Part shown: positions 27,786 to 50,567 of the stretch, in pieces
How positions within the stretch are numbered: position 1 is the stretch's first letter
Layout: each line of letters opens with the position of its first letter
From: an uncultured Candidatus Nitrosopelagicus sp.
GTDB taxonomy: Archaea > Thermoproteota > Nitrososphaeria > Nitrososphaerales > Nitrosopumilaceae
DNA: 64,000 bases
Direction: 5' to 3'
NCBI GenBank assembly: GCA_964511265.1
Contig: CAZEES010000003.1
Span: 836-64,835, forward strand
Notes under the pieces: generated by a model
Seen by the model: only the letters and a program-made list of their open reading frames with translations
The model's database searches: none
What the model was told of the DNA's origin: nothing
Translations under genes and position numbers: made by a program

Positions 27786-28295
27786 ATGAAACTTTTAGTT
27801 AAATTCTCATTAATTGCAGTATCACTCACAGCAATTGTTTCTGGTTTGATGCAAGTTGATGCAGATAGTAATTCTGTTCCTGACTGGATAAAAAATACTG
27901 CAAAATGGTATGGAGAAGGCAATACCTCTGAATCTGACTTTCTGCATGCAATAAAATTTTTGATTCAACAAAAAATCATCATAATTGATGACAATGAATT
28001 GTCAACTGAACCCTACATTGTCATCCCAAATGGAAATGCACAAAAAGGAAGTCATGGATTTTACGAGCCGATTCATCTTGATATAACGACTGGAACTACT
28101 GTTACTTGGAAAAATCAAGATGATTATGGACACACAGTCCAAAGTCAAGATGACACTGGACGTGTAATTCCACTTTTCAACAGTGATATTTTGCTTACAG
28201 GACAAACATTTGAACATACATTCCTAGAGTCTGGAGACTTTCAATACTTTTGCACGTTGCATCCTTGGCGAGTAGGCACAATCTCTGTTTTTTGA
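27786..28295 (+). CDS. Secreted cupredoxin (blue-copper-like) with N-terminal W..N.AKW module
   Basis: Signal peptide, PDWIKNTAKWY, GHTV, YFCTLHPW. Confidence 0.88.
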   Translation: MKLLVKFSLIAVSLTAIVSGLMQVDADSNSVPDWIKNTAKWYGEGNTSESDFLHAIKFLIQQKIIIIDDNELSTEPYIVIPNGNAQKGSHGFYEPIHLDITTGTTVTWKNQDDYGHTVQSQDDTGRVIPLFNSDILLTGQTFEHTFLESGDFQYFCTLHPWRVGTISVF

Positions 28296-40291: not shown

Positions 40292-41062
40292 TCAACGCCA
40301 ATCACCTTTGTATCCATACCTAGAACCGTAGGCATAATCAGATTTGTTAGTTTTCTTATAGAAATAACCAACTCCTAATCCCAAAAAGAATCCACCAATG
40401 TGTGCCAAAAATGCAACACCGCCACCTGCAACACCAAATCCTCCTATGAAGAATGGTAACAAGTTTTGGAAGATTAGCCAAAATGGTAAGAAGAATTTTG
40501 CAGGAATGTGCATCATTCGCCAGAAAAATCCCAACATAACGAACGTCATGACCTTAGCTCGTGGGAACATTACCAAATATGCACCAAGAATTCCAGCAAT
40601 TGCACCAGATGCACCAACTGCAGGAATTCCGCTTCCTGCATCACCATAAATGTGAATTAACCCTGCACCGACTCCCCACATTAGATAAATTCCAATGTAT
40701 TTGACTCTACCAAACTTGGCTTCAATGTTGTCACCAAAGATCCACAGAAACAACATGTTTCCTCCAAGATGCATTATTCCTCCATGCATGAATGTCGAGG
40801 TAATCAGAGTAATTTCAGGAATTGCAGGACAATTAATAATTTCAGCACCGGTATTGATTCCATCAATCTGACCTGTAACACATCCTGGAACTGCACCCCA
40901 AGTCAGAAACATGTTCATTGCTTCATAATTTGAAAACTCGATAAATTGTCCAGTAATTGAAACCTCAATTCCAAATACTATAACGTTCATAATGATTAGC
41001 GCAATTGTTAGTTTTGGTTTAAATCCTGGCGGATGTGGATTTTCATCTCTTAATGGAAGCAT
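40292..41062 (-). CDS. Rhomboid intramembrane serine protease
   Basis: HLGGNMLFLWIFG, VGASGAI, AHIGGF. Confidence 0.95.
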   Translation of the reverse strand: MLPLRDENPHPPGFKPKLTIALIIMNVIVFGIEVSITGQFIEFSNYEAMNMFLTWGAVPGCVTGQIDGINTGAEIINCPAIPEITLITSTFMHGGIMHLGGNMLFLWIFGDNIEAKFGRVKYIGIYLMWGVGAGLIHIYGDAGSGIPAVGASGAIAGILGAYLVMFPRAKVMTFVMLGFFWRMMHIPAKFFLPFWLIFQNLLPFFIGGFGVAGGGVAFLAHIGGFFLGLGVGYFYKKTNKSDYAYGSRYGYKGDWR

Positions 41063-41104: not shown

Positions 41105-42757
41105 CTAGACTGCAATTATTCCTTCTTTAATGAGGAATTGAATTCCGGATGCAAATGTATTATCGTCTATTTGACCGTCAGCCCACCATGCAGCATTATT
41201 TCTGACCCAATCAGGAATTGTTGCATTTTCATTTTGTGCACCACTTCCAGTGGTTGGTACAGAAATAATTCCTTGTTTTATCATAAATTCAATTCCGGAT
41301 GCAAATGTATTATCGTCAATTTCACCATTTGACCACCATTTTGCATTGTTCTTTACCCAATCAGGAATACTAACAGATTGTTCTGCAGATGGAGTTGGGG
41401 TAAATGAGCTACTAGTAGATACACCTACTTCAAACATCTGAGATGTTTGTATAAATTCATCATAATTAGAAAAGCCCTCTCCAGTCAATACCAAATTCAG
41501 AGTATACATGCCATCGTCAGGTATTGTTATCAAATGTGTGGCAATTCCTTCTATTGATTTTACACCTACAAATTGTTCAGGAGTATCACCAGTAACCAAA
41601 TTAAATTGATTGCCTTGTGGATCAACTAGACCAAATGCATAGATTACATCTTTTACCAAACCTCCATTATTATCAAAGAAGGAAAACTCAAATGGAATTT
41701 CGTCTCCAATTCCATATTTAGAATCCCAAGCAATAATTGCTGTATAGCCATTATCAAATGACATATCAAATGAATTTTTTTCAGTATTGCCTTGTGGAAT
41801 TAATTCAAAGTTCATTGTCTTAGAAGATTCATGAGATGGACCCAAAACTTCGTTAATTCTCTGTAATTCAGTTCCAGTTACTAAAAAGTGAACAATATTT
41901 TCAGTCTCAGATGAATATGGATCCATTATCAGAACTCTTTGATCAACTTCAATGCCATCTACATAACCCTTGAATGATGTTTCAGTACTGTATGGATCAA
42001 ATGATTTTGGAACCCGAATCTCTTCATGAACCATTTGAACTAATTCTACATATTCAGGTGCCCAATCAAAAGGCATGTCGAACGATATGGCGTTATTACT
42101 TTGAGCATATGTGAAATTTTCTATGTCGTCATAATAGGTTTTTACTGTTACAGGAATTTCTGCTGCTGCAGTTTTGATAAAGAAATTTTGATCTTGGGCA
42201 ACACTAACGAAAGTATCAAAGTTTAGTGGTTCAGCTACTAATGTTCTAGGACTTGTAGCACCTTCAATTGAAACTTTGACATTATACAATCCGCCTTTTT
42301 CAAAGATTGGACCATCAATAATTGGTACACTGTCACCTCGTGCAAACAATCCACCAGCTGTACTATGGACTTCACCATAATATTGAGTACACTTCCAAGG
42401 CTTTGCCTCATAACAATCAGTTTGTGGTCTGACCTCAACATTTAGTGTACCATCTTGATCATAGAAATAATTTCTAGCTAAAAGATCTCCACTTCTCCAG
42501 ATTTCAACACGATAAGTAACTTGTTCTAAATTTTGATCAGTTAATGTGTCGTAAAAACGAATTGCAATATTTGCAGAATCAACTTCACCTGCAGTCATAT
42601 CAGAAGGGTCTAACTGAGTAAACACAGTGACTTGCATGCCACCAAAACTAATTGGAGGTGCAGCATCGCCACCTAAACCATGACCAAATGCATCTTCACT
42701 TAGAAATGGCAAAGTAACAAAGATAGCTGCAATGAATAATAGACTTGTATAGTACAA
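41105..42757 (-). CDS. Secreted surface protein with two C-terminal IPxWVKNNA-WW modules
   Basis: Signal peptide ...DAFG-HG; paralog of 49017-50567. Confidence 0.8.
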
Positions 42758-42852
42758 TTATCATTTTTAGCTGTAAAGCACCTATTAATGATTCGATGAA
42801 TTTTCACATGTGTTACGAGATGATTTTTATATTATCTCACAAAATTCACGTT

Positions 42853-43677
42853 ATGAAATATTTTCTGGGCTTGATGTTACTTCCATTATTGTTAACGCCT
42901 GCTTTTGCCGAAAGTGCAGAAGACTTTGATCAAGTTTTACCTTCAGAAAATGATACATTAAACATTGGATTATCAGTAGTCCCTCATGCAGAAGCTAACT
43001 CAGTGTCAAAATTGCACATTGGATGGATAAAGCCAGGATTCAACAAGATTCAAGAGCATATTGATTACAAAATTACAGTCATCAAAGATGGTCAGAACAT
43101 CTTTGGGCCAATTCCACTTACACATACATCTTTGGGAACGGTAAAAATTCCTGTAGAGTTTACGTCAGAAGGGGAACATCAAGTAAAAATTGAGATGGAA
43201 GGAATTTTGTTCCAACCAATCCCATTAGAAACTACATACTTTACAATTAACGTTGGAGGAGAAAAGACTACTCAACCAGTACAAGAGAACGAGAACGAAG
43301 GAGGAGGATGTTTAATTGCAACTGCGGCATTTGGTTCAGAAATGGCACCACAGGTTCAACAACTTAGAGAAATTCGTGACAATGTTGTGATGCAAACAAA
43401 CTCAGGAAAATCTTTCATGACAGGATTCAATCAAGTTTACTATTCGTTCTCACCATATGTTGCTGACTATGAAAGAGAAAATCCACTATTCAAAGAAATT
43501 GTCAAAGTAACATTAACACCAATGCTAACATCATTTACAATTTTGGCTCATGTTCCAGTTGACACAGAACAAGAAATGCTAGGTTATGGAATTGGCGTTA
43601 TACTACTAAACATTGGAATGTACTTTGTCGCGCCAGCAGTATTGTTTACAGCAATCAAAAAGAAACTTGGAAAGTAG
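42853..43677 (+). CDS. Secreted protein with CFI-box-CTERM-like domain
   Basis: Signal peptide MKYFLG...AFA; GGCLIATAAFGSE; C-terminal TM. Confidence 0.8.
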   Translation: MKYFLGLMLLPLLLTPAFAESAEDFDQVLPSENDTLNIGLSVVPHAEANSVSKLHIGWIKPGFNKIQEHIDYKITVIKDGQNIFGPIPLTHTSLGTVKIPVEFTSEGEHQVKIEMEGILFQPIPLETTYFTINVGGEKTTQPVQENENEGGGCLIATAAFGSEMAPQVQQLREIRDNVVMQTNSGKSFMTGFNQVYYSFSPYVADYERENPLFKEIVKVTLTPMLTSFTILAHVPVDTEQEMLGYGIGVILLNIGMYFVAPAVLFTAIKKKLGK

Positions 43678-43679
43678 AA

Positions 43680-44327
43680 TTATTTTCTCTTTGCAAATGA
43701 TGCAATAGCAATTACAATTCCTATGATACCTAATCCTATTGCAACGTAGCTTAACATAGAAGTGTCATTTGATGGTTGATCTTTTAATTCATTTACGGTT
43801 TGTTGTAATTCTCTAATATCACCACGTAAATCATTAATTTCACGCTCAAAATCTCCAGATTCCACAATAGTTGATTCAACAGGAGGGAATTGCAAAACTT
43901 CTTGCTCTTCAACTTTTAGTGGATGTAATGCCAAGTTGACATTTTGTTCATTGATTTTTCCAAGAAAGTTTAGTTGCGACCAACCAGAAAATGTTGGTGT
44001 GATTGGCGATTCGTATTTACCTGAAATATCTGTTGGTTGTAATGGAAGTGTTATAGATTCAGTTTCAACAACTAGTTGTATCTTCAAAGTTTTTCTTAAA
44101 CCATCGATTCCTTTTTCAGGATCAAATGGCTGATCTGCAGCCTCCTTACTTGTGTCCATTTCACTAACATAAACAATTATGGCATTTGACTCGCCAGTAA
44201 CTATTGGCTTGTTTTTCCAGTCAATCTCAATTCTGTAATCTCCTACCGAGTCAGATTGGTGGGCAAATACACTACTAAGGAATAAAGGAGATATCAAAAG
44301 AATTACAATTATGGATACACTTTTCAC
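43680..44327 (-). CDS. Secreted, C-terminally anchored His1 protein
   Basis: VFA-HQSD, coiled coil, TM, KRK tail; paralog of 45473-46123. Confidence 0.75.
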   Translation of the reverse strand: MKSVSIIVILLISPLFLSSVFAHQSDSVGDYRIEIDWKNKPIVTGESNAIIVYVSEMDTSKEAADQPFDPEKGIDGLRKTLKIQLVVETESITLPLQPTDISGKYESPITPTFSGWSQLNFLGKINEQNVNLALHPLKVEEQEVLQFPPVESTIVESGDFEREINDLRGDIRELQQTVNELKDQPSNDTSMLSYVAIGLGIIGIVIAIASFAKRK

Positions 44328-44434
44328 AGTATTTTCAGAGAATTGTTTGAATAAAAATCAAGGTAGTACATTTATCGATAAAATAGGCATGAATCTGGAG
44401 ATCATTTTTATTGTCCAAATTTGGAATTTACCTA

Positions 44435-45304
44435 ATGAATAACAAGACTCTAAGTTCCTTATTCGTTCTTTTTGCAATTGTTTCAATCGGAATGACTGCA
44501 GCACCTGGTGCATTTGCTGAACACTCAATGAATGCAACAGTAGAGAACGCACAAGGTTCTTCGTCTCCGGGATGTGAACCAGATTGTTTCATCCCAGCTA
44601 CAGTTACCATTGGTGTTGGCGGTCAAGTTACATTTGCTAACAACGATAATGCAGCACACACATCTACAGCTGGAAGTCCAGCAGATGGACCAAGTGGGGT
44701 ATGGGACAGCTCATTAGTTATGGTTGGACAATCATACACAACTCCACCACTAGATGCAGGAGAATATCCTTACTTTTGCATGGTTCACCCATGGATGGTA
44801 GGATTGGTAATTGTTGAAGAAGAAAGTCATGACGATCACGGTGATGAACACGCTGAAGAAGCAGAAGATCATAGTGGTATGGAAATGCAAACACTAACTG
44901 CAGCAGATATTGCAATTAGTGTAAATGATGGTGCAAAAGCAGGTGAGAAAGTAGCAATTGACGTAACAATTAGCGGTGAACACGTTAACTATGATATTGT
45001 TGCAACTCACAATGGTGAAACAATCCTAGATGAGAGTGGCAATCATTCACATACAGGAGAAGGTAGTCACACTACATCAGCACTCAGTGCAGATGCATCT
45101 GATGACAACCCAATTGATGTTACAGTAACATTCCAAGGATTTGGTATGCCAGGTGACGACAAGACAGGTCCAATTGGATTAACAAACACAGCACAAGCAG
45201 TTCCAGAATTTGGTGCAATAGCAGCAGTGATTCTTGCAGTAGCAATTGTTTCAATAATTGCAGTATCAGCAAAATCAAGACTTAGCTTTATGCCAAGACT
45301 CTAG
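44435..45304 (+). CDS. Blue-copper (type 1) protein with His-rich linker and PEFG-CTERM anchor
   Basis: AAHT, YFCMVHPWM, SHDDHGDEH, VPEFGAIAAVIL. Confidence 0.92.
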   Translation: MNNKTLSSLFVLFAIVSIGMTAAPGAFAEHSMNATVENAQGSSSPGCEPDCFIPATVTIGVGGQVTFANNDNAAHTSTAGSPADGPSGVWDSSLVMVGQSYTTPPLDAGEYPYFCMVHPWMVGLVIVEEESHDDHGDEHAEEAEDHSGMEMQTLTAADIAISVNDGAKAGEKVAIDVTISGEHVNYDIVATHNGETILDESGNHSHTGEGSHTTSALSADASDDNPIDVTVTFQGFGMPGDDKTGPIGLTNTAQAVPEFGAIAAVILAVAIVSIIAVSAKSRLSFMPRL

Positions 45305-45310
45305 ACAAGA

Positions 45311-45338
45311 CTTTTTTTCCTTTTATTTTTATTTTTTA
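45311..45338 (+). terminator. U-tract terminator of the PEFG cupredoxin gene
   Basis: Long T-rich tract right after the stop codon. Confidence 0.6.
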
Positions 45339-45396
45339 TCTAGTACAACTGTAGTATGTACCAATTTGTATAATAATGAAAAGTGTAGAAACAAAG

Positions 45397-45474
45397 TGAT
45401 AGACAGTTCCCTTAACGTGTCATAAGATAGGAACTTCATCGTCTAACCAGAAATTCTGTCTATCAGTTTTTTTT
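45397..45474 (+). ncRNA. Candidate structured small RNA
   Basis: Perfect 10-bp terminal stem, inner hairpin, upstream TATA-like box and downstream T8; strand not certain. Confidence 0.45.
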
Positions 45475-46123
45475 ATTTTCGACGAATCATAGCAATTACA
45501 GCTAAGATTACACCAGCCGCGCCTAAGCACAAACCAAATACACCAAAGTTGTAAGCATTTTGTATATCTACACCACCTGCAGTAAGACTGACATCACCAA
45601 CATTTGATTTTAGATTTGAGACGTCCTTTTGCAATGAGGATAATGCATTTTTTACTGCGCCTATTTCGCCTGCAGAAGATGATCCACTAACTGGTGGAAA
45701 TGCAATGACTGATTGACTCTCAACATCTTCAATAGGAATAACAGCATCAATTGCTAAGCCGTTAAGTTCACCTACTAATTTTACAGACATTGAACCTGTT
45801 TTAGTTGGTAAAATTTTTGCATAGTAATGTCCAGGTCTTGGATCAGAATTAATGTCAAGTGTTTTAGTTGCACCACCTGAGATTAGAGTTGCAGTCATGC
45901 TTTTGAAAGCACTGTTAATTCCTGTTCGAAGACCTTCTTTTTCTCCAGATTCAGCCACTTCAACAACAATAGTATTAGGTAATCCAACTACTGGAGGTTC
46001 ATCTCCCCAGCCAGCCTCAATCTCATATTGTTCAATATGGATAGTAGTATGCGCAAATGCAGAAGACATTCCAAATCCGGATATCAAGAGCATACTCAAA
46101 AAGAGAAAAGATTTTTTCAACAT
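45473..46123 (-). CDS. Secreted, C-terminally anchored His1 protein
   Basis: AFA-HTTIH, GWGDEPP, coiled coil, TM, RRK tail. Confidence 0.78.
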   Translation of the reverse strand: MLKKSFLFLSMLLISGFGMSSAFAHTTIHIEQYEIEAGWGDEPPVVGLPNTIVVEVAESGEKEGLRTGINSAFKSMTATLISGGATKTLDINSDPRPGHYYAKILPTKTGSMSVKLVGELNGLAIDAVIPIEDVESQSVIAFPPVSGSSSAGEIGAVKNALSSLQKDVSNLKSNVGDVSLTAGGVDIQNAYNFGVFGLCLGAAGVILAVIAMIRRK

Positions 46124-46218
46124 GTTTTATTTCAATTCTTACATTATTATCTTTACTAAAATAGTACAACTTTAAAACACGTATTTCTTTAAATTACAAG
46201 AATGCAGATTTCATATTA

Positions 46219-48990
46219 TTGAATAAAATTTGGATTCTTCCAGTCATAATATTTTTTTTAGGATTTCCTCTAGCCAGTGCACACCCATTTTTGTTAGATT
46301 CTGAACCAGGACAAGGACAAAATGTGCCAGCAGGCACTACCCAAATCATTACAAATTATTCCGAAGCAGTTGAAATTGATTTTTCTGAATTAAAAGTGTA
46401 TGACGCAAATGGAAATCAGATAGACAATAGAGACACCATGTATAATGACGGAGAGACGTCACTTGTTGTTACAACATCACCCCTTGAAGATGGGGTTTAT
46501 ACAATAACTAGCAAAGTTTTATCAAAAGTTGATGGTCATCTAGTTCAAGCAGCAATAGTTTTCGGAGTTGGAGATGTAAAAATTGATTCATCATTACTAG
46601 AAAAACAACAAAGTTCAGAGACTACATTTATTCCAGAATCAGTTGCTAGATTTCCCGGATTAGTGGGACAAACAATAATTCTTGGAGGAGTAATAGTTTC
46701 AATTACGATCTGGTCATCACAGCAAACTAGATTTAGAGAAGTTTTTAGTGACATAAATGAACAATTCAAAATAAAATTTTCAAAGATTATTGGATATGGA
46801 GTGATTGCTACATTTGCATCAAATTTTATAATGCTTGGAGTTCAGACATGGAGATTAGAAGTTTCACCATTAGATGTTATTGGAACTACATTTGGTACAA
46901 CGTGGCTAATTCGAATGATCATTACCATCATCATTATTGGAATTTGGTTTTGGATGGAAAAGAAAAAAGAGATTACAATGAAAGGACAAATTCCTTTGTT
47001 AGTAGTATCACTAATTTTGATTGCTACAACTACAATGATGGGACATGGAGCATCGACTGAATTACAAGCACCATGGGTTTTGGATTATGCTCACAATTTG
47101 TTGTCATCAATCTGGATTGGCGGAGTGATATTTTTTGCCTTTGTTGTACTCCCCACAATTACAAAAGCTGATAATTCTACGAAAGAGAAAATTGCACTAA
47201 GTTTGATTCCAAGATTTTCAGGATTATTCATCATAGCAATTGGGATTTTAATCATAACAGGCCCAACTTTGCTATGGTTCTTAGATGATAACGTATCATC
47301 CCTTACAGATTCAACATATGGCAAGTTAATTTTAATCAAGATTGGAATTGCCGCCATAATGATAGCGTTTGGCGGATTATACCAAGTGAAGTATTTAGGA
47401 AAGATGAAAGATTTTGAGAAATTAAATATTTCAAGAAAAATTAGCAAGCCACTGAAATTTGAAGCAGGGTTAGGAATTGCATTATTAGCAGTAGTTGCAC
47501 TTTTGGTAAATTCTTCATTGCCTGCTGGAGAGATTCAATCAGCTGATGCGATACAAGGAACGTTTGGTTACGAGTCAGTTTTATTTTCTGAAAATGCAAA
47601 ATTTGATGTTAAAATAGAACCAGCAGGAATTGGTTCAAATACAATTTCAGTTATAGTTTCATCATTTGATGATAAACCGCTTGCAGATATTTCTGGATTG
47701 AAGATCAAAGTTTCAAATCCACAAAAGAACATCTCTCCAATAGGAGCTGAGGTAATTGAGAACGTACAAAATTCAGTCACCAGATATACTGCAGACACAA
47801 CATTTGGATTTGCAGGTAACTGGCAAATTGAGTTAGAAGCTCAAAGAATAGAGACCTCTAATGAAAATGTAATTTTCAACATTCAGATAAAACCATCGCT
47901 AAACGATGTCAGAACAGAGATTACGGAATATGATTTACCTGCAGATGATACTGCACCACTCTTTCCAGTTTATGATGGAAAGAACATTTGGATTTCTGAT
48001 GCACAAAAACCACGTCTATGGAAATTTTCAATAGAAGATGAACAGTTTACATCATACACATTTGATGGAATGACTACAATTTTTATGGACATCGGTAAAG
48101 ATGGGAAGATTTGGTTTACTGACACACCAAATTCAAAAATTGGAAGTTTTGATCCAAAAACTGAGAAATTTGAGACAATCAAATTGCCACAATTTACTTT
48201 GGTGAGTAAAAAATCACTTCCAACCTCAGTTGCAGTCGATAGTGAAGATGATGTTTGGGTTGCAGTCATTGACCGTTCGATAATTTTAGAGTATAACCAA
48301 TCAACTGAGAAATTCAAGATAATGAATACAATCACGCCTGAAGCAGGACCAACTGCATTAGAGATTGATGGTTCAGATAACGTATGGTTTGCCGAATCAC
48401 TGGTAGGAAAACTTGGAAAAATTGATGCAGAAACAAAAGAGATGAGTGAATTTGTTCCACAAACAGAGCCAATGGCAGAACCATTTGCGCTAATGATTGA
48501 TAAAGAAGAAAATATTTGGATTGCGGAGCATATTGGACCTGCAGTAACAAAGTTTAATCCAATCTTAGAAGATTTTCAGAAAGTTCCGATTGCAAATCCA
48601 GAATCATTGCCCTTCGGAATGGCCATTGACAAATATGATAACATGTGGGTAGCACAACACGTCATAGATAGTTTAGTGGTGTATGATCAGAGTAGCGGAC
48701 AGATGACTCAAGTTGCAATACCAACTGAAGGATCATTTACGCAGTTTGTGATTGCAGATGATAATGGAGACATTTGGTTTGTAGAACAACGTGGAGGAAA
48801 ACTTGGTAAAGTTTCAATCAGTGCGGTACCTAGTCAGAGAACAGCAATTCAGGAAGAATCAACTGAAAGTATGATGTATGTTGAATTGGTAGCGCCGATT
48901 ATTGCTGCAGGAATTATTGCCACATCATTATTTTACGTTAAAAGTGTGAGAGATAAGAGAAAAGTTGACGAGATGATCTCCACTAAGTAA
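46219..48990 (+). CDS. CopC-CopD-Ig-like-beta-propeller (Vgb/NHL) fusion, copper uptake/resistance
   Basis: ASA-HPFLLDSEP and DGH (CopC); GHG, HNLLSSIWIGG (CopD); repeated DG.IWFT/DN.W..E blades. Confidence 0.9.
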   Translation: MNKIWILPVIIFFLGFPLASAHPFLLDSEPGQGQNVPAGTTQIITNYSEAVEIDFSELKVYDANGNQIDNRDTMYNDGETSLVVTTSPLEDGVYTITSKVLSKVDGHLVQAAIVFGVGDVKIDSSLLEKQQSSETTFIPESVARFPGLVGQTIILGGVIVSITIWSSQQTRFREVFSDINEQFKIKFSKIIGYGVIATFASNFIMLGVQTWRLEVSPLDVIGTTFGTTWLIRMIITIIIIGIWFWMEKKKEITMKGQIPLLVVSLILIATTTMMGHGASTELQAPWVLDYAHNLLSSIWIGGVIFFAFVVLPTITKADNSTKEKIALSLIPRFSGLFIIAIGILIITGPTLLWFLDDNVSSLTDSTYGKLILIKIGIAAIMIAFGGLYQVKYLGKMKDFEKLNISRKISKPLKFEAGLGIALLAVVALLVNSSLPAGEIQSADAIQGTFGYESVLFSENAKFDVKIEPAGIGSNTISVIVSSFDDKPLADISGLKIKVSNPQKNISPIGAEVIENVQNSVTRYTADTTFGFAGNWQIELEAQRIETSNENVIFNIQIKPSLNDVRTEITEYDLPADDTAPLFPVYDGKNIWISDAQKPRLWKFSIEDEQFTSYTFDGMTTIFMDIGKDGKIWFTDTPNSKIGSFDPKTEKFETIKLPQFTLVSKKSLPTSVAVDSEDDVWVAVIDRSIILEYNQSTEKFKIMNTITPEAGPTALEIDGSDNVWFAESLVGKLGKIDAETKEMSEFVPQTEPMAEPFALMIDKEENIWIAEHIGPAVTKFNPILEDFQKVPIANPESLPFGMAIDKYDNMWVAQHVIDSLVVYDQSSGQMTQVAIPTEGSFTQFVIADDNGDIWFVEQRGGKLGKVSISAVPSQRTAIQEESTESMMYVELVAPIIAAGIIATSLFYVKSVRDKRKVDEMISTK

Positions 48991-49016
48991 AATAAGAGTG
49001 AAATTAATTTCAAAAC

Positions 49017-50567
49017 ATGAAGATCATATTGGGATTATTCTTTGCATTTGTCTTAACATTTTCAATTGGCAGTGCATTTGGTCACGGTGCAGGAATTGAA
49101 GCATCACCACTAGTTTTTACAAATGACAGACAAGTCAAAGTTACAGTAGAATTACTTCCATCAGACTTTTACAAATCTGATCAAAAGATGATAAAAATTG
49201 ATGCCTACGACCATACAAATCGCGAGACAATCACAAATGTTAGTTTCAAAGTTGAAATTTTTAATGAAGGACAATTATTGTTAGATGAATGGTTTTACAC
49301 ACAAGACGGAATTTTAATTTTAGAAGTTGACCCAGAAATAATTCTAGCAGACAAAAACAGTGTTGAGGTTTTTGGAGAGAAGAATGATTTTGGATTATGG
49401 GAGAAAACTGGAGAGTCACCATTAATAATAGCAGGACCAATTTTTGATAAAGGCGGAATATACACATTCAAAATTACACTTGATGCACAAGATGAGGTTG
49501 GAATAATTAGTGATGAAGAATTCGAGGTGCAAGTAAGTGTGACGGATGTATCACATCATCAGGAAACTGTTGGTCAAAAAGAAACAGAATTTAGAGTAAA
49601 ATCCTACTATGATAAGATTAGCAATTTTGAGTATGACGCTAAAAAGAATATAGCGAAGATTAATTTCCCGTTTGACTTTTCCGAGTCAAACATTTCACAT
49701 ACAAGTGTGGTACATACTGAGATAATGTTTCCAAAAAATACACTCGAATTTCTTTCACCAAATTATTCTGGAACGGCAAATAATATTGAATTATTCAAAT
49801 CATCTATCTTCATAGATGATTATTCTGAGGAAGACAATCGAATAGTTCACTTTGTGTTATTGCCAGATCATCTAAGACACATTAAAAATCAGTTAAAAAA
49901 GACAATGGATGAATTACCAAATTCAGTTGAATTAATTCTTAACAAAGGAGAAGAGATAGAATTTCCACTAAGAACTCTAACACTCAGTGAGGAGTATCAA
50001 GTGGATCTAACATGGGACCCAAAAGTAATCACTCCTGGAGAAAGTATTAGATTCATTTACACATTTAGAGATACAACAGATTTAGGACCAATTAGGAATT
50101 CGGATTATACAATTACATTGTTACAAAATGGTCAAACAATTTTTTCTGAAGACAGATTTGCAAAAATTGGTGCGGATTATACCGACTTTACATTTGCAGA
50201 AGGACAAACAGGTTTGACAGTTGCCAGATTTTCAAACATCTCAGGAAGTGGACAACAGACAGAATTTGCATTTGCAGTTGGATTACAAGTAGATTCATCA
50301 TTAGTTCCGGAATGGGTGAAGAACAATGCAGGATGGTGGGCAGACGGTCAGATACCTGACTCGGCATTCATAGATGGAATTGAATTCTTGATAAAAGATG
50401 GAATAATTGTTGTTTCAGATATGCAGCAAAGTGAGTCACAAACAGATGGGATTCCGGAATGGGTGAAGAACAATGCAGGATGGTGGGCAGACGGTCAGAT
50501 ACCTGACTCGGCATTCATAGATGGAATTGAATTCTTGATAAAAGATGGAATAATAAAAATTAGTTAA
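49017..50567 (+). CDS. Secreted surface protein with two identical C-terminal WW modules
   Basis: AFG-HGAG; paralog of 41105-42757. Confidence 0.8.
   Translation: MKIILGLFFAFVLTFSIGSAFGHGAGIEASPLVFTNDRQVKVTVELLPSDFYKSDQKMIKIDAYDHTNRETITNVSFKVEIFNEGQLLLDEWFYTQDGILILEVDPEIILADKNSVEVFGEKNDFGLWEKTGESPLIIAGPIFDKGGIYTFKITLDAQDEVGIISDEEFEVQVSVTDVSHHQETVGQKETEFRVKSYYDKISNFEYDAKKNIAKINFPFDFSESNISHTSVVHTEIMFPKNTLEFLSPNYSGTANNIELFKSSIFIDDYSEEDNRIVHFVLLPDHLRHIKNQLKKTMDELPNSVELILNKGEEIEFPLRTLTLSEEYQVDLTWDPKVITPGESIRFIYTFRDTTDLGPIRNSDYTITLLQNGQTIFSEDRFAKIGADYTDFTFAEGQTGLTVARFSNISGSGQQTEFAFAVGLQVDSSLVPEWVKNNAGWWADGQIPDSAFIDGIEFLIKDGIIVVSDMQQSESQTDGIPEWVKNNAGWWADGQIPDSAFIDGIEFLIKDGIIKIS
50305..50554. repeat. 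Perfect 103-bp direct repeat (50305-50407 and 50452-50554)
   Basis: Base-by-base identity; period 147 bp. Confidence 0.95.

Follow-up and report, generated by a model that had tools for sequence, protein, structure and literature searches.

A candidate copper-handling gene cluster around a CopC-CopD fusion in Candidatus Nitrosopelagicus and a widespread unannotated family of tethered proteins predicted to begin with histidine

Results

Seven clustered envelope proteins and the histidine-first pattern

The stretch analysed here, 64,000 nucleotides of contig CAZEES010000003.1 and hereafter called the window, has a guanine-plus-cytosine (GC) content of about 34% and encodes proteins that share 80-95% identity with those of Candidatus Nitrosopelagicus genomes, which places its source among the marine ammonia-oxidising archaea. 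Seven secreted or membrane proteins, designated G1 to G7 and listed in Table 1, are packed into 41.1-50.6 kb of it around a CopC-CopD fusion (G6), and this cluster, with its possible role in copper handling, is the subject of the present analysis. Five of the seven, namely the long proteins G1 and G7, the short proteins G3 and G5, and G6, begin with histidine after cleavage at an A/G-x-A/G site. This had been claimed in a sequence-only reading of the window, and all strings quoted there were found at the genes named, as was the Glu-His start of the cupredoxin G4. Cleavage sites were predicted by the (-3,-1) rule with a crude custom script, which picked exactly the sites quoted in that reading, and sequence conservation supports them more strongly: of 99 diverse sequences of the short family (G3/G5), 97 have His at +1, 92 have Ala at -1 and 90 have Ala or Val at -3, and xxA/G precedes HPF in all CopC-CopD orthologs, which places His at +1 in 17/17.

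The histidine-first pattern in the cluster is beyond chance, because secreted proteins and families outside the cluster nearly all start with other residues. The other three credible secreted proteins in the window start with Asp, Ala and Glu, and in about 1 Mb of related loci, where 34 other families look secreted, only one genuine family has a His start. G5 and G6 are divergently transcribed, G7 starts 27 nucleotides past the stop codon of G6, and the cluster is syntenic across Nitrosopelagicus and Nitrosopumilus. As a separate observation, an unrelated secreted family of Nitrosopumilaceae (224-237 amino acids, aa; loci L068, L069 and L078, on the flanks of repeat-bearing genes) has His at +1 in 7/8 copies, with starts such as SSAFA/HIPVVLDKEQ and PAYA/HKLITHDD.

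Table 1. Features of the cluster and related elements, in window coordinates; residue numbers refer to the precursor proteins and a slash marks the predicted cleavage site.
Feature	Position	Strand	Size	Predicted mature start	Family and architecture
Cupredoxin with repeat	27786-28295	+	169 aa	VDA/DSN	Secreted; one G1/G7-type repeat at the N-terminus, then a cupredoxin domain
Rhomboid-family membrane protein	40292-41062	-			Adjoins G1; family read from the sequence by eye
G1	41105-42757	-	550 aa	SEDAFG/HGLGG, His26	Long His1 family; signal peptide; beta-sandwich chain ~30-445; C-terminal helical repeats 464-500 and 514-550
G2	42853-43677 (start approximate)	+		AFA/ESA, Glu-Ser (no His)	CFI-box-CTERM protein
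G2, N-terminal beta-sandwich domain	42853-43330
G3	43680-44327	-	215 aa	SSVFA/HQSDS, His23	Short His1 family
G4	44411-45304	+		AFA/EHS, Glu-His	Plastocyanin-like cupredoxin, PEFG-CTERM
G4, past the cupredoxin domain	44819-45100				Residues ~137-230; acidic His-rich linker 137-155, then a second small domain
G5	45473-46123	-	216 aa	SSAFA/HTTIH, His25	Short His1 family; signal peptide; immunoglobulin (Ig)-like beta-sandwich 25-135; helix 149-176; C-terminal transmembrane anchor 187-215
G6	46219-48990	+	923 aa	PLASA/HPFLL, His22	Signal peptide; CopC; CopD; YtkA-like domain ~459-539; Vgb-lyase-like beta-propeller ~565-845; final transmembrane helix 887-905
G6, propeller and final helix	47900-48990				Residues ~565-905
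G7	49017-50567	+	516 aa	GSAFG/HGAGI, His23	Long His1 family; domain plan as G1; two C-terminal repeats
G7, C-terminal repeats	50305-50407; 50452-50554		103 nucleotides each

A CopC-CopD fusion with a complete Cu(II) ligand set

In G6, Pfam assigned CopC (PF04234, 45.1 bits against a cut-off of 23.3, residues 22-117), CopD (PF05425, 57.2 against 32.1) and, over the propeller, Vgb_lyase (111 against 50). The Pfam YtkA match reached 23.4 bits, under its cut-off of 25.9, and the NCBIfam CopC and CopD models also stayed under their cut-offs, the CopC equivalog with 47 against 95. The Cu(II) ligand set of CopC is complete, with mature His22 and Asp105-Gly-His107, and residues 22-130 hold a single internal Met. 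By this ligand set the N-terminal domain is predicted to be a Cu(II)-only CopC of the C0-1 class, which includes Methylosinus trichosporium CopC and has the same His1, Asp-x-His and one internal Met. The fusion to CopD is as in Gram-positive bacteria and in other ammonia-oxidising archaea (AOA), across which CopC/D fusions are already known as conserved (PMC7785015). The CopC-CopD part of G6 is of a known kind, and only the fusion partners, that is, the YtkA-like domain, the propeller and the extra transmembrane helix, differ.

About eight hydrophobic or transmembrane segments lie between residues 142 and 430 of G6 and make up its CopD domain. His276 stands in MGHG and His292 in YAHNLLSSIWIGG, in the contexts GH and HxxLxxxWxGG, their equivalence to H295 of YebZ/YcnJ being putative. 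The propeller, of Vgb-lyase/SGL/NHL-like type, and the final transmembrane helix recur on CopC-CopD in Nitrosopumilus loci and on the protein (965 aa) of the distant locus L092.

A widespread unannotated family of tethered proteins

G3 and G5 gave no Pfam match at E<=0.1 and no NCBIfam match, and when PDB sequences were searched by phmmer and by profile, with G5 and with the short-family profile as queries, nothing meaningful came up. An exhaustive search recovered 593 short-family representatives at 50% identity clustering, and the relatives that carry names are all called 'hypothetical protein'. On sequence grounds the short family appears new, widespread and unannotated, and we regard it as the most notable result of the cluster. 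In an alignment of 67 members (23-52% identity to G5), His25, Trp39, Pro43, Asn50 and Pro143 are invariant, while Ala24, Gly38, Glu42, Gly98, Tyr100, Pro106, Gly110, Gly118 and Phe142 are conserved in at least 90%. In the 99 diverse sequences, Trp39 is found in 97/99 and Glu42 in 94/99. His25 is the only invariant His, and the family holds no second conserved His that would complete a bis-histidine brace.

The AlphaFold2 model of G5 (predicted local distance difference test, pLDDT, 88.7) has a beta-sandwich, a long helix and a transmembrane helix. Strands 25-30 and 33-39 form a hairpin, Glu42-Pro43 lie in the loop after it and Asn50 opens strand 3. By strand register, and not by measured distances, His25 would be placed beside Gly38/Trp39 and near Glu42 and Asn50. 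Foldseek matches of the model were generic Ig/filamin-type sandwiches, CrdA and copper-bound FetP, both periplasmic copper proteins, and DUF4426; YcnI and CopC were absent from the top 50. G3 is a diverged paralog of G5 with a like architecture, in which His23, Trp37 and Asn48 are retained.

The short family may be distantly linked to the CtaK/YtkA copper-assembly domain. YtkA (PF13115) gave weak matches in 6/67 members, the best at E = 5.5e-5, the member P0265 overlaps YtkA at E = 0.0012, and the relative P0257 carries a true YtkA domain in tandem. The hhalign comparison of the short family with the YtkA-like domain of G6 gave a probability of 0.4%, which is not significant, and kinship to that domain was rejected at this sensitivity.

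Gene context was sampled for 12 distant short-family representatives on contigs of 51-72% GC, clearly from other phyla of both archaea and bacteria. A CopC-CopD fusion gene is adjacent to, or at most two genes from, the short-family gene in 8/12, usually directly downstream on the same strand and a few bases away, and sometimes with cytochrome c domains; two others (P0155 and P0162) lie on contigs too short to judge. The CopC/CopD neighbourhood is thus seen in the window, in Nitrosopumilaceae loci and in these eight distant representatives. In L092, a contig of 42% GC whose CopC-CopD protein is 34% identical to G6, the fusion gene is accompanied by two homologs each of the long and the short family and by a G2-like gene, and His is at +1 in all five expected proteins. 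Since the His1 families co-occur in so distant a locus, the association of all three is old. A further arrangement was observed in L088 (5715-7597), on an archaeal-looking contig of 64% GC with TrmB regulators, in which the short-family gene has a CopC-CopD gene on one side and, on the other, two genes with faint cupredoxin/multicopper-oxidase and PKD matches; the order resembles that of CopC-CopD, short protein and cupredoxin in the window.

Comparison with YcnI-YcnJ and other N-terminal histidine proteins

In YcnI of B. subtilis a signal peptide is followed by His1 and a small extracellular domain, and a transmembrane helix stands at the C-terminus; the gene neighbours of YcnI are CopC/CopD. 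Its Cu(II) site consists of the N-terminal amine and imidazole, Glu50 and a water, with a conserved Trp cap, and Cu(II) is exchanged between YcnI and the CopC domain of YcnJ (PMC12154828; bioRxiv 10.1101/2021.06.11.448128). The order CopC-CopD-YtkA in G6 equals that of YcnJ (PMC12154828), although G6 has an additional beta-propeller and terminal transmembrane helix. The short family is likewise built from a signal peptide, His1, a small beta domain and a linker, with a transmembrane helix at the C-terminus and conserved His, Glu and Trp, and its gene is coupled to CopC/CopD. However, the Trp and Glu stand 14 and 17 residues past His1 in the short family and at 137 and 50 in YcnI, an invariant Asn is added, and the fold is Ig/filamin-like and not cupredoxin-like. 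The cluster also differs from the ycnKJI operon in having no YcnK-type repressor gene, and its host is an archaeon with a surface layer (S-layer). No DUF1775 match was found for G3/G5 (Pfam, E<=0.1) or among the 67 members (E<=0.01), and the short-family profile search of PDB sequences recovered no YcnI chain. Membership in the YcnI/DUF1775 family was therefore rejected on profile and fold tests. Because the architecture, the His/Glu/Trp set and the neighbourhood are alike but these tests failed, the short family looks like a functional analogue of YcnI and not a homolog.

A signal peptide followed directly by His has already been published as the mark of a metal site (signal strapping), and such proteins bind Ni and other metals as well (PMC12537917). 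The metalloproteins in question (DUF4198, DUF6702, Ang-1 and Ang-2) are, as in the short family, secreted Ig-like domains with a mature His1, which there chelates the metal. Ang-1 binds Cu via His1 and Asn41, a site that the invariant Asn of the short family recalls, and it too sits beside a membrane permease (PMC12537917). In contrast to these families, the partner here is CopD and not HupE/UreJ, of which no gene or domain was found in the cluster, and the short protein is separate and tethered instead of permease-fused. DUF4198, DUF6702 and the Ang families gave no Pfam match to the short proteins, and PDB 9GCE was absent from the top 50 fold matches.

The long proteins G1 and G7

Orthologs of G1 and G7 carry the NCBI product name 'peptidase'. 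The sequence-only reading had doubted this label, and rightly so: neither Pfam nor NCBIfam assigned the long proteins to any family, and no match was found among PDB sequences. In the AlphaFold2 model (pLDDT 79.7), beta-sandwich domains are strung together ahead of two helical repeats, and for this model Foldseek returned only Ig/complement/macroglobulin/S-layer-type chains with template-modelling scores (TM-scores) <=0.2. A peptidase identity finds no support in these domain and fold tests. G1 orthologs, G7 orthologs and a third paralog group all retain the start (A/G)/H-G-(L/V/A/I)-G, and G/HG(L/V/A)G recurs in the two L092 long homologs at 21-26% identity. The motifs VH(E/T)EI and IVHF, which had been described as common to both paralogs, are indeed present in G1 (VHEEI at 243, IVHF at 288) and G7 (VHTEI at 232, IVHF at 276), and G1 orthologs show no variation at H244 and H290.

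The C-terminal repeats of G1 and G7 occur on many unrelated secreted proteins of the Nitrosopumilaceae and are probably a general surface-anchoring module. The two G7 repeats are 100% identical at the DNA level, which points to a recent duplication or gene conversion within G7, and the G1 repeats are 80% identical. One such repeat (VPDWIKNTAKWY...FLIQQKII) also opens the 169 aa cupredoxin encoded elsewhere in the window, which has C-x2-H followed by Arg where G4 has its axial Met (FCTLHPWRVG). A long-family gene with AOA-type repeats lies in DNA of 37-40% GC in each of three records named 'Trueperaceae bacterium' (L036, L039 and L041, contigs of 1-5 Mb), whose organism label or assembly looks wrong.

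A copper role of the long 'peptidase' proteins is possible, if weakly indicated. MopE/CorA of methanotrophs are surface copper-acquisition proteins and offer a match in concept. The same is true of Cbi1/Bim1 of Cryptococcus, a surface His-brace-type protein that feeds a copper importer (PMC9258870), with which the long proteins would share the idea of a surface-anchored copper-binding protein aiding a membrane importer under high copper demand. None of these has homology to the archaeal long proteins, whose copper binding is putative.

G4, G2 and the rhomboid-like neighbour

G4 matches PF00127 (Copper-bind) marginally, with 22.2 bits against a cut-off of 21.2, and the PEFG-CTERM model TIGR04296 with 37.8 against 25; the ATG at 44435 is its likely true start. 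It has the type-1 ligand set His83, Cys123, His126 and Met129. Its orthologs start with EH, DH or AH, but also with AEV and DDS, His2 being common and not universal. The linker behind the cupredoxin domain (EEESHDDHGDEHAEEAEDH) and the further His clusters that go with the second small domain (GNHSHTGEGSH) are possible extra metal-binding segments. The sequence-only reading had proposed a multi-component copper relay with G4 as its client; G4 is an ordinary type-1 cupredoxin and needs no place in it.

The same applies to G2, which lacks an N-terminal His. G2 scores 80 bits against a cut-off of 40 with the CFI-box-CTERM model NF041770, is the divergent partner of G1 in nearly all loci and has an invariant Q-x-H-(I/V)-D-(Y/W) in the N-terminal domain of its orthologs. 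The G2-like protein of L092 (8765-9292, minus strand) matches both the G2 of the window (E=3e-15) and the long-family profile (E=1.7e-9), and the N-terminal domain of G2 may derive from that of the long family, minus the His. The link is transitive only, via L092, and direct kinship of G2, or of the second domain of G4, to the long family was rejected at this sensitivity (profile probability 0.2%). Two variants were observed besides: a G2 ortholog with an apparent inserted cupredoxin segment (L003, 3709-4779) and a secreted cyclophilin and PsbP-like protein (L018, 12294-13835, minus strand) whose CFI-box-CTERM is 77% identical to that of G2. The latter gene adjoins the third long-family paralog, and the pair of a long gene and a CFI-box gene recurs in L023, L025 and L051. 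As the CFI-box also ends the cyclophilin-PsbP protein, it is a general module.

The rhomboid-like gene next to G1 is syntenic with the cluster and stays near long-family genes in Nitrosopelagicus and Nitrosopumilus loci. A link of its product to the processing of the anchored proteins of the cluster is conceivable.

Expression and regulation

Every gene of the cluster turns up in seawater metatranscriptome contigs, which, not being reads, document presence only, and G4 is the deepest cluster transcript in two seawater metatranscriptomes. Such abundance is no less compatible with an electron carrier than with a copper 'client'. In N. viennensis under Cu limitation, two copC/D genes and adjacent 'exported proteins of unknown function' are up 1.4-2.8 log2 (PMC7785015 Dataset S1). 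The Cu-induced exported proteins (NVIE_014250, NVIE_1457 and NVIE_014340) may or may not be homologous to the short and long families. In both AOA studied, CopC/D is regulated together with complex IV (PMC7785015). A search for shared intergenic repeats gave only short two-copy matches.

Discussion

The evidence tips somewhat in favour of reading the cluster as a conserved cell-envelope copper-handling unit around CopC-CopD, in which the tethered short His1 proteins would be Cu(II)-binding partners of the transporter; metal binding by the N-terminal His of the long proteins is a weaker part of this reading. Once the signal peptide is removed, the amine and imidazole of His1 in the short protein would bind Cu(II) together with the Glu and/or Asn, as a mono-histidine brace under a Trp cap. 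The tethered domain would then swap Cu(II) with the CopC domain of G6, and CopC would hand it to CopD, as in the YcnI-YcnJ scheme of B. subtilis but on an unrelated fold. The proposal that the membrane-anchored short proteins act as shuttles fits well here, the CopC-CopD linkage across distant lineages being what a YcnI-like Cu(II) shuttle might be expected to leave. More tentatively, the conserved N-terminal His of G1 and G7 may bind metal at the cell surface, where the C-terminal repeats would hold these proteins.

Several observations weigh against copper handling as the common function of the cluster. The mature N-termini are predictions from rule-based cleavage sites. G1 and G7 (31% identity) and G3 and G5 (27% identity) are paralog pairs, and the five His1 proteins therefore amount to three independent families, one of which, CopC, was already known for its His1. 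For the short family there is no convincing match to DUF1775 or to a solved copper protein, the target TM-scores of CrdA and FetP being 0.5-0.65, and CopC-CopD is absent within 5-6 kb of the short-family gene in 2/12 of the distant relatives. G3 has Lys40 where the family has the conserved Glu and its orthologs were found only in Nitrosopelagicus loci and L022, and its function may therefore have diverged. The long family fares less well. Conservation of His1 in alignments, which had been named as a check, holds in all three families with the exception of a fourth long paralog clade that reads AxA/Q-H-H and has Gln at +1 by the normal rule, and both the third and the fourth (QHH) paralogs sit among housekeeping genes. 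Homology of the short and long families was rejected at the sensitivity of the profile comparison (probability 2.9%). Residues 9-27 of G1 have pLDDT <50, so that AlphaFold leaves the N-terminus of the long protein unplaced, and family-wide the His of VHxEI and IVHF are found in only 23/30 and 24/30 (77-80%). A bis-histidine brace is accordingly not indicated for G1/G7, with H244/H290 not family-wide and His26 without a place in the model. With regard to regulation, under Cu limitation N. maritimus reportedly shows a decrease in its CopC/D fusion and an increase in a lone copD (PMC7785015), and the Cu-responsive motif of N. viennensis, TTCSGSMTTTGWACYANT, is not enriched in the window, with 4 matches against 3.06 expected and none in a cluster promoter.

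It is unlikely, though worth serious consideration, that only CopC-CopD is copper-related and that the short and long proteins are general structural or adhesion proteins of the envelope, their His serving folding, processing or the binding of Ni or Zn. Both families are built of generic Ig-like domains, the long-family repeats are common to many unrelated secreted proteins, the CFI-box and PEFG anchors are general sorting modules, and N-terminal His proteins bind Ni and other metals too (PMC12537917). The adjacency of the short family to CopC-CopD across phyla is however hard to explain without a shared function, and its His/Trp plus Glu set mirrors the copper site of YcnI.

The multi-component relay proposed earlier, in which the long proteins collect Cu(II) and pass it via the short proteins to CopC-CopD for import, with G4 as client, survives in part. 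The conserved copper-related unit around CopC-CopD stands, and so does the tie of the short proteins to it; the direction of transfer and the cupredoxin client are pure inference, and as an ordered five-component relay the scheme is speculation, to which we give rather little credence. All components are co-located and syntenic, the family set with His at +1 recurs in L092, three different anchoring modules place every component at the envelope, the repeat module of G1/G7 is also borne by a separate cupredoxin in the window, and Cbi1/Bim1 provides a precedent (PMC9258870). Nothing in these data supports a direction or contacts between the components, the long family departs from His at +1 in one of its clades and is also met outside copper contexts, no G4 homolog is present in the L092 cluster, and neither G4 nor G2 has His1. 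AOA cupredoxins are, moreover, generally regarded as electron carriers and not as cargo.

That the cluster, instead of scavenging copper, metallates copper enzymes of respiration and ammonia oxidation (complex IV, ammonia monooxygenase, cupredoxins), with the short proteins as chaperones of CtaK/YtkA or Sco type, is very improbable. The comparison of the short family with the YtkA-like domain of G6 is not significant, and CtaK-type proteins are not known to use an N-terminal His. What recommends it are the weak YtkA-like matches in some short members with the true tandem YtkA in one relative, the YtkA-like domain in G6 itself, a heme A synthase gene that adjoins the L092 cluster, the position of the short-family gene of L084 between thioredoxin/redoxin genes, the co-regulation of CopC/D with complex IV in both AOA studied, and the support which YcnJ's YtkA domain and CtaK lend to CuA assembly (PMC13344008).

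Ammonia oxidation and electron transport of AOA depend on copper, yet little is known of how these organisms take it up and distribute it; in marine AOA no handling genes other than CopC/CopD are recognised (PMC9723733). If the copper-handling unit proposed here is real, the idea that YcnI and YcnJ exchange Cu(II) would reach the archaea and a second, unrelated fold, and a function would be assigned to some 600 clusters of 'hypothetical proteins'. In its boldest form, which we regard as unlikely, S-layer-tethered G1/G7 collectors would hand over extracellular Cu(II) to tethered Ig-like shuttles with a mono-histidine brace (G5/G3) and these to CopC-CopD. The short family, which many other archaea and bacteria also have, would in that case form a new and widespread class of copper chaperone in which a YcnI-type site evolved independently on another fold. 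For the long proteins, a conserved family on the AOA surface, the product name 'peptidase' is flagged as unfounded, and a defined partner family of CopC-CopD would offer biochemists a concrete protein for expression and assay.

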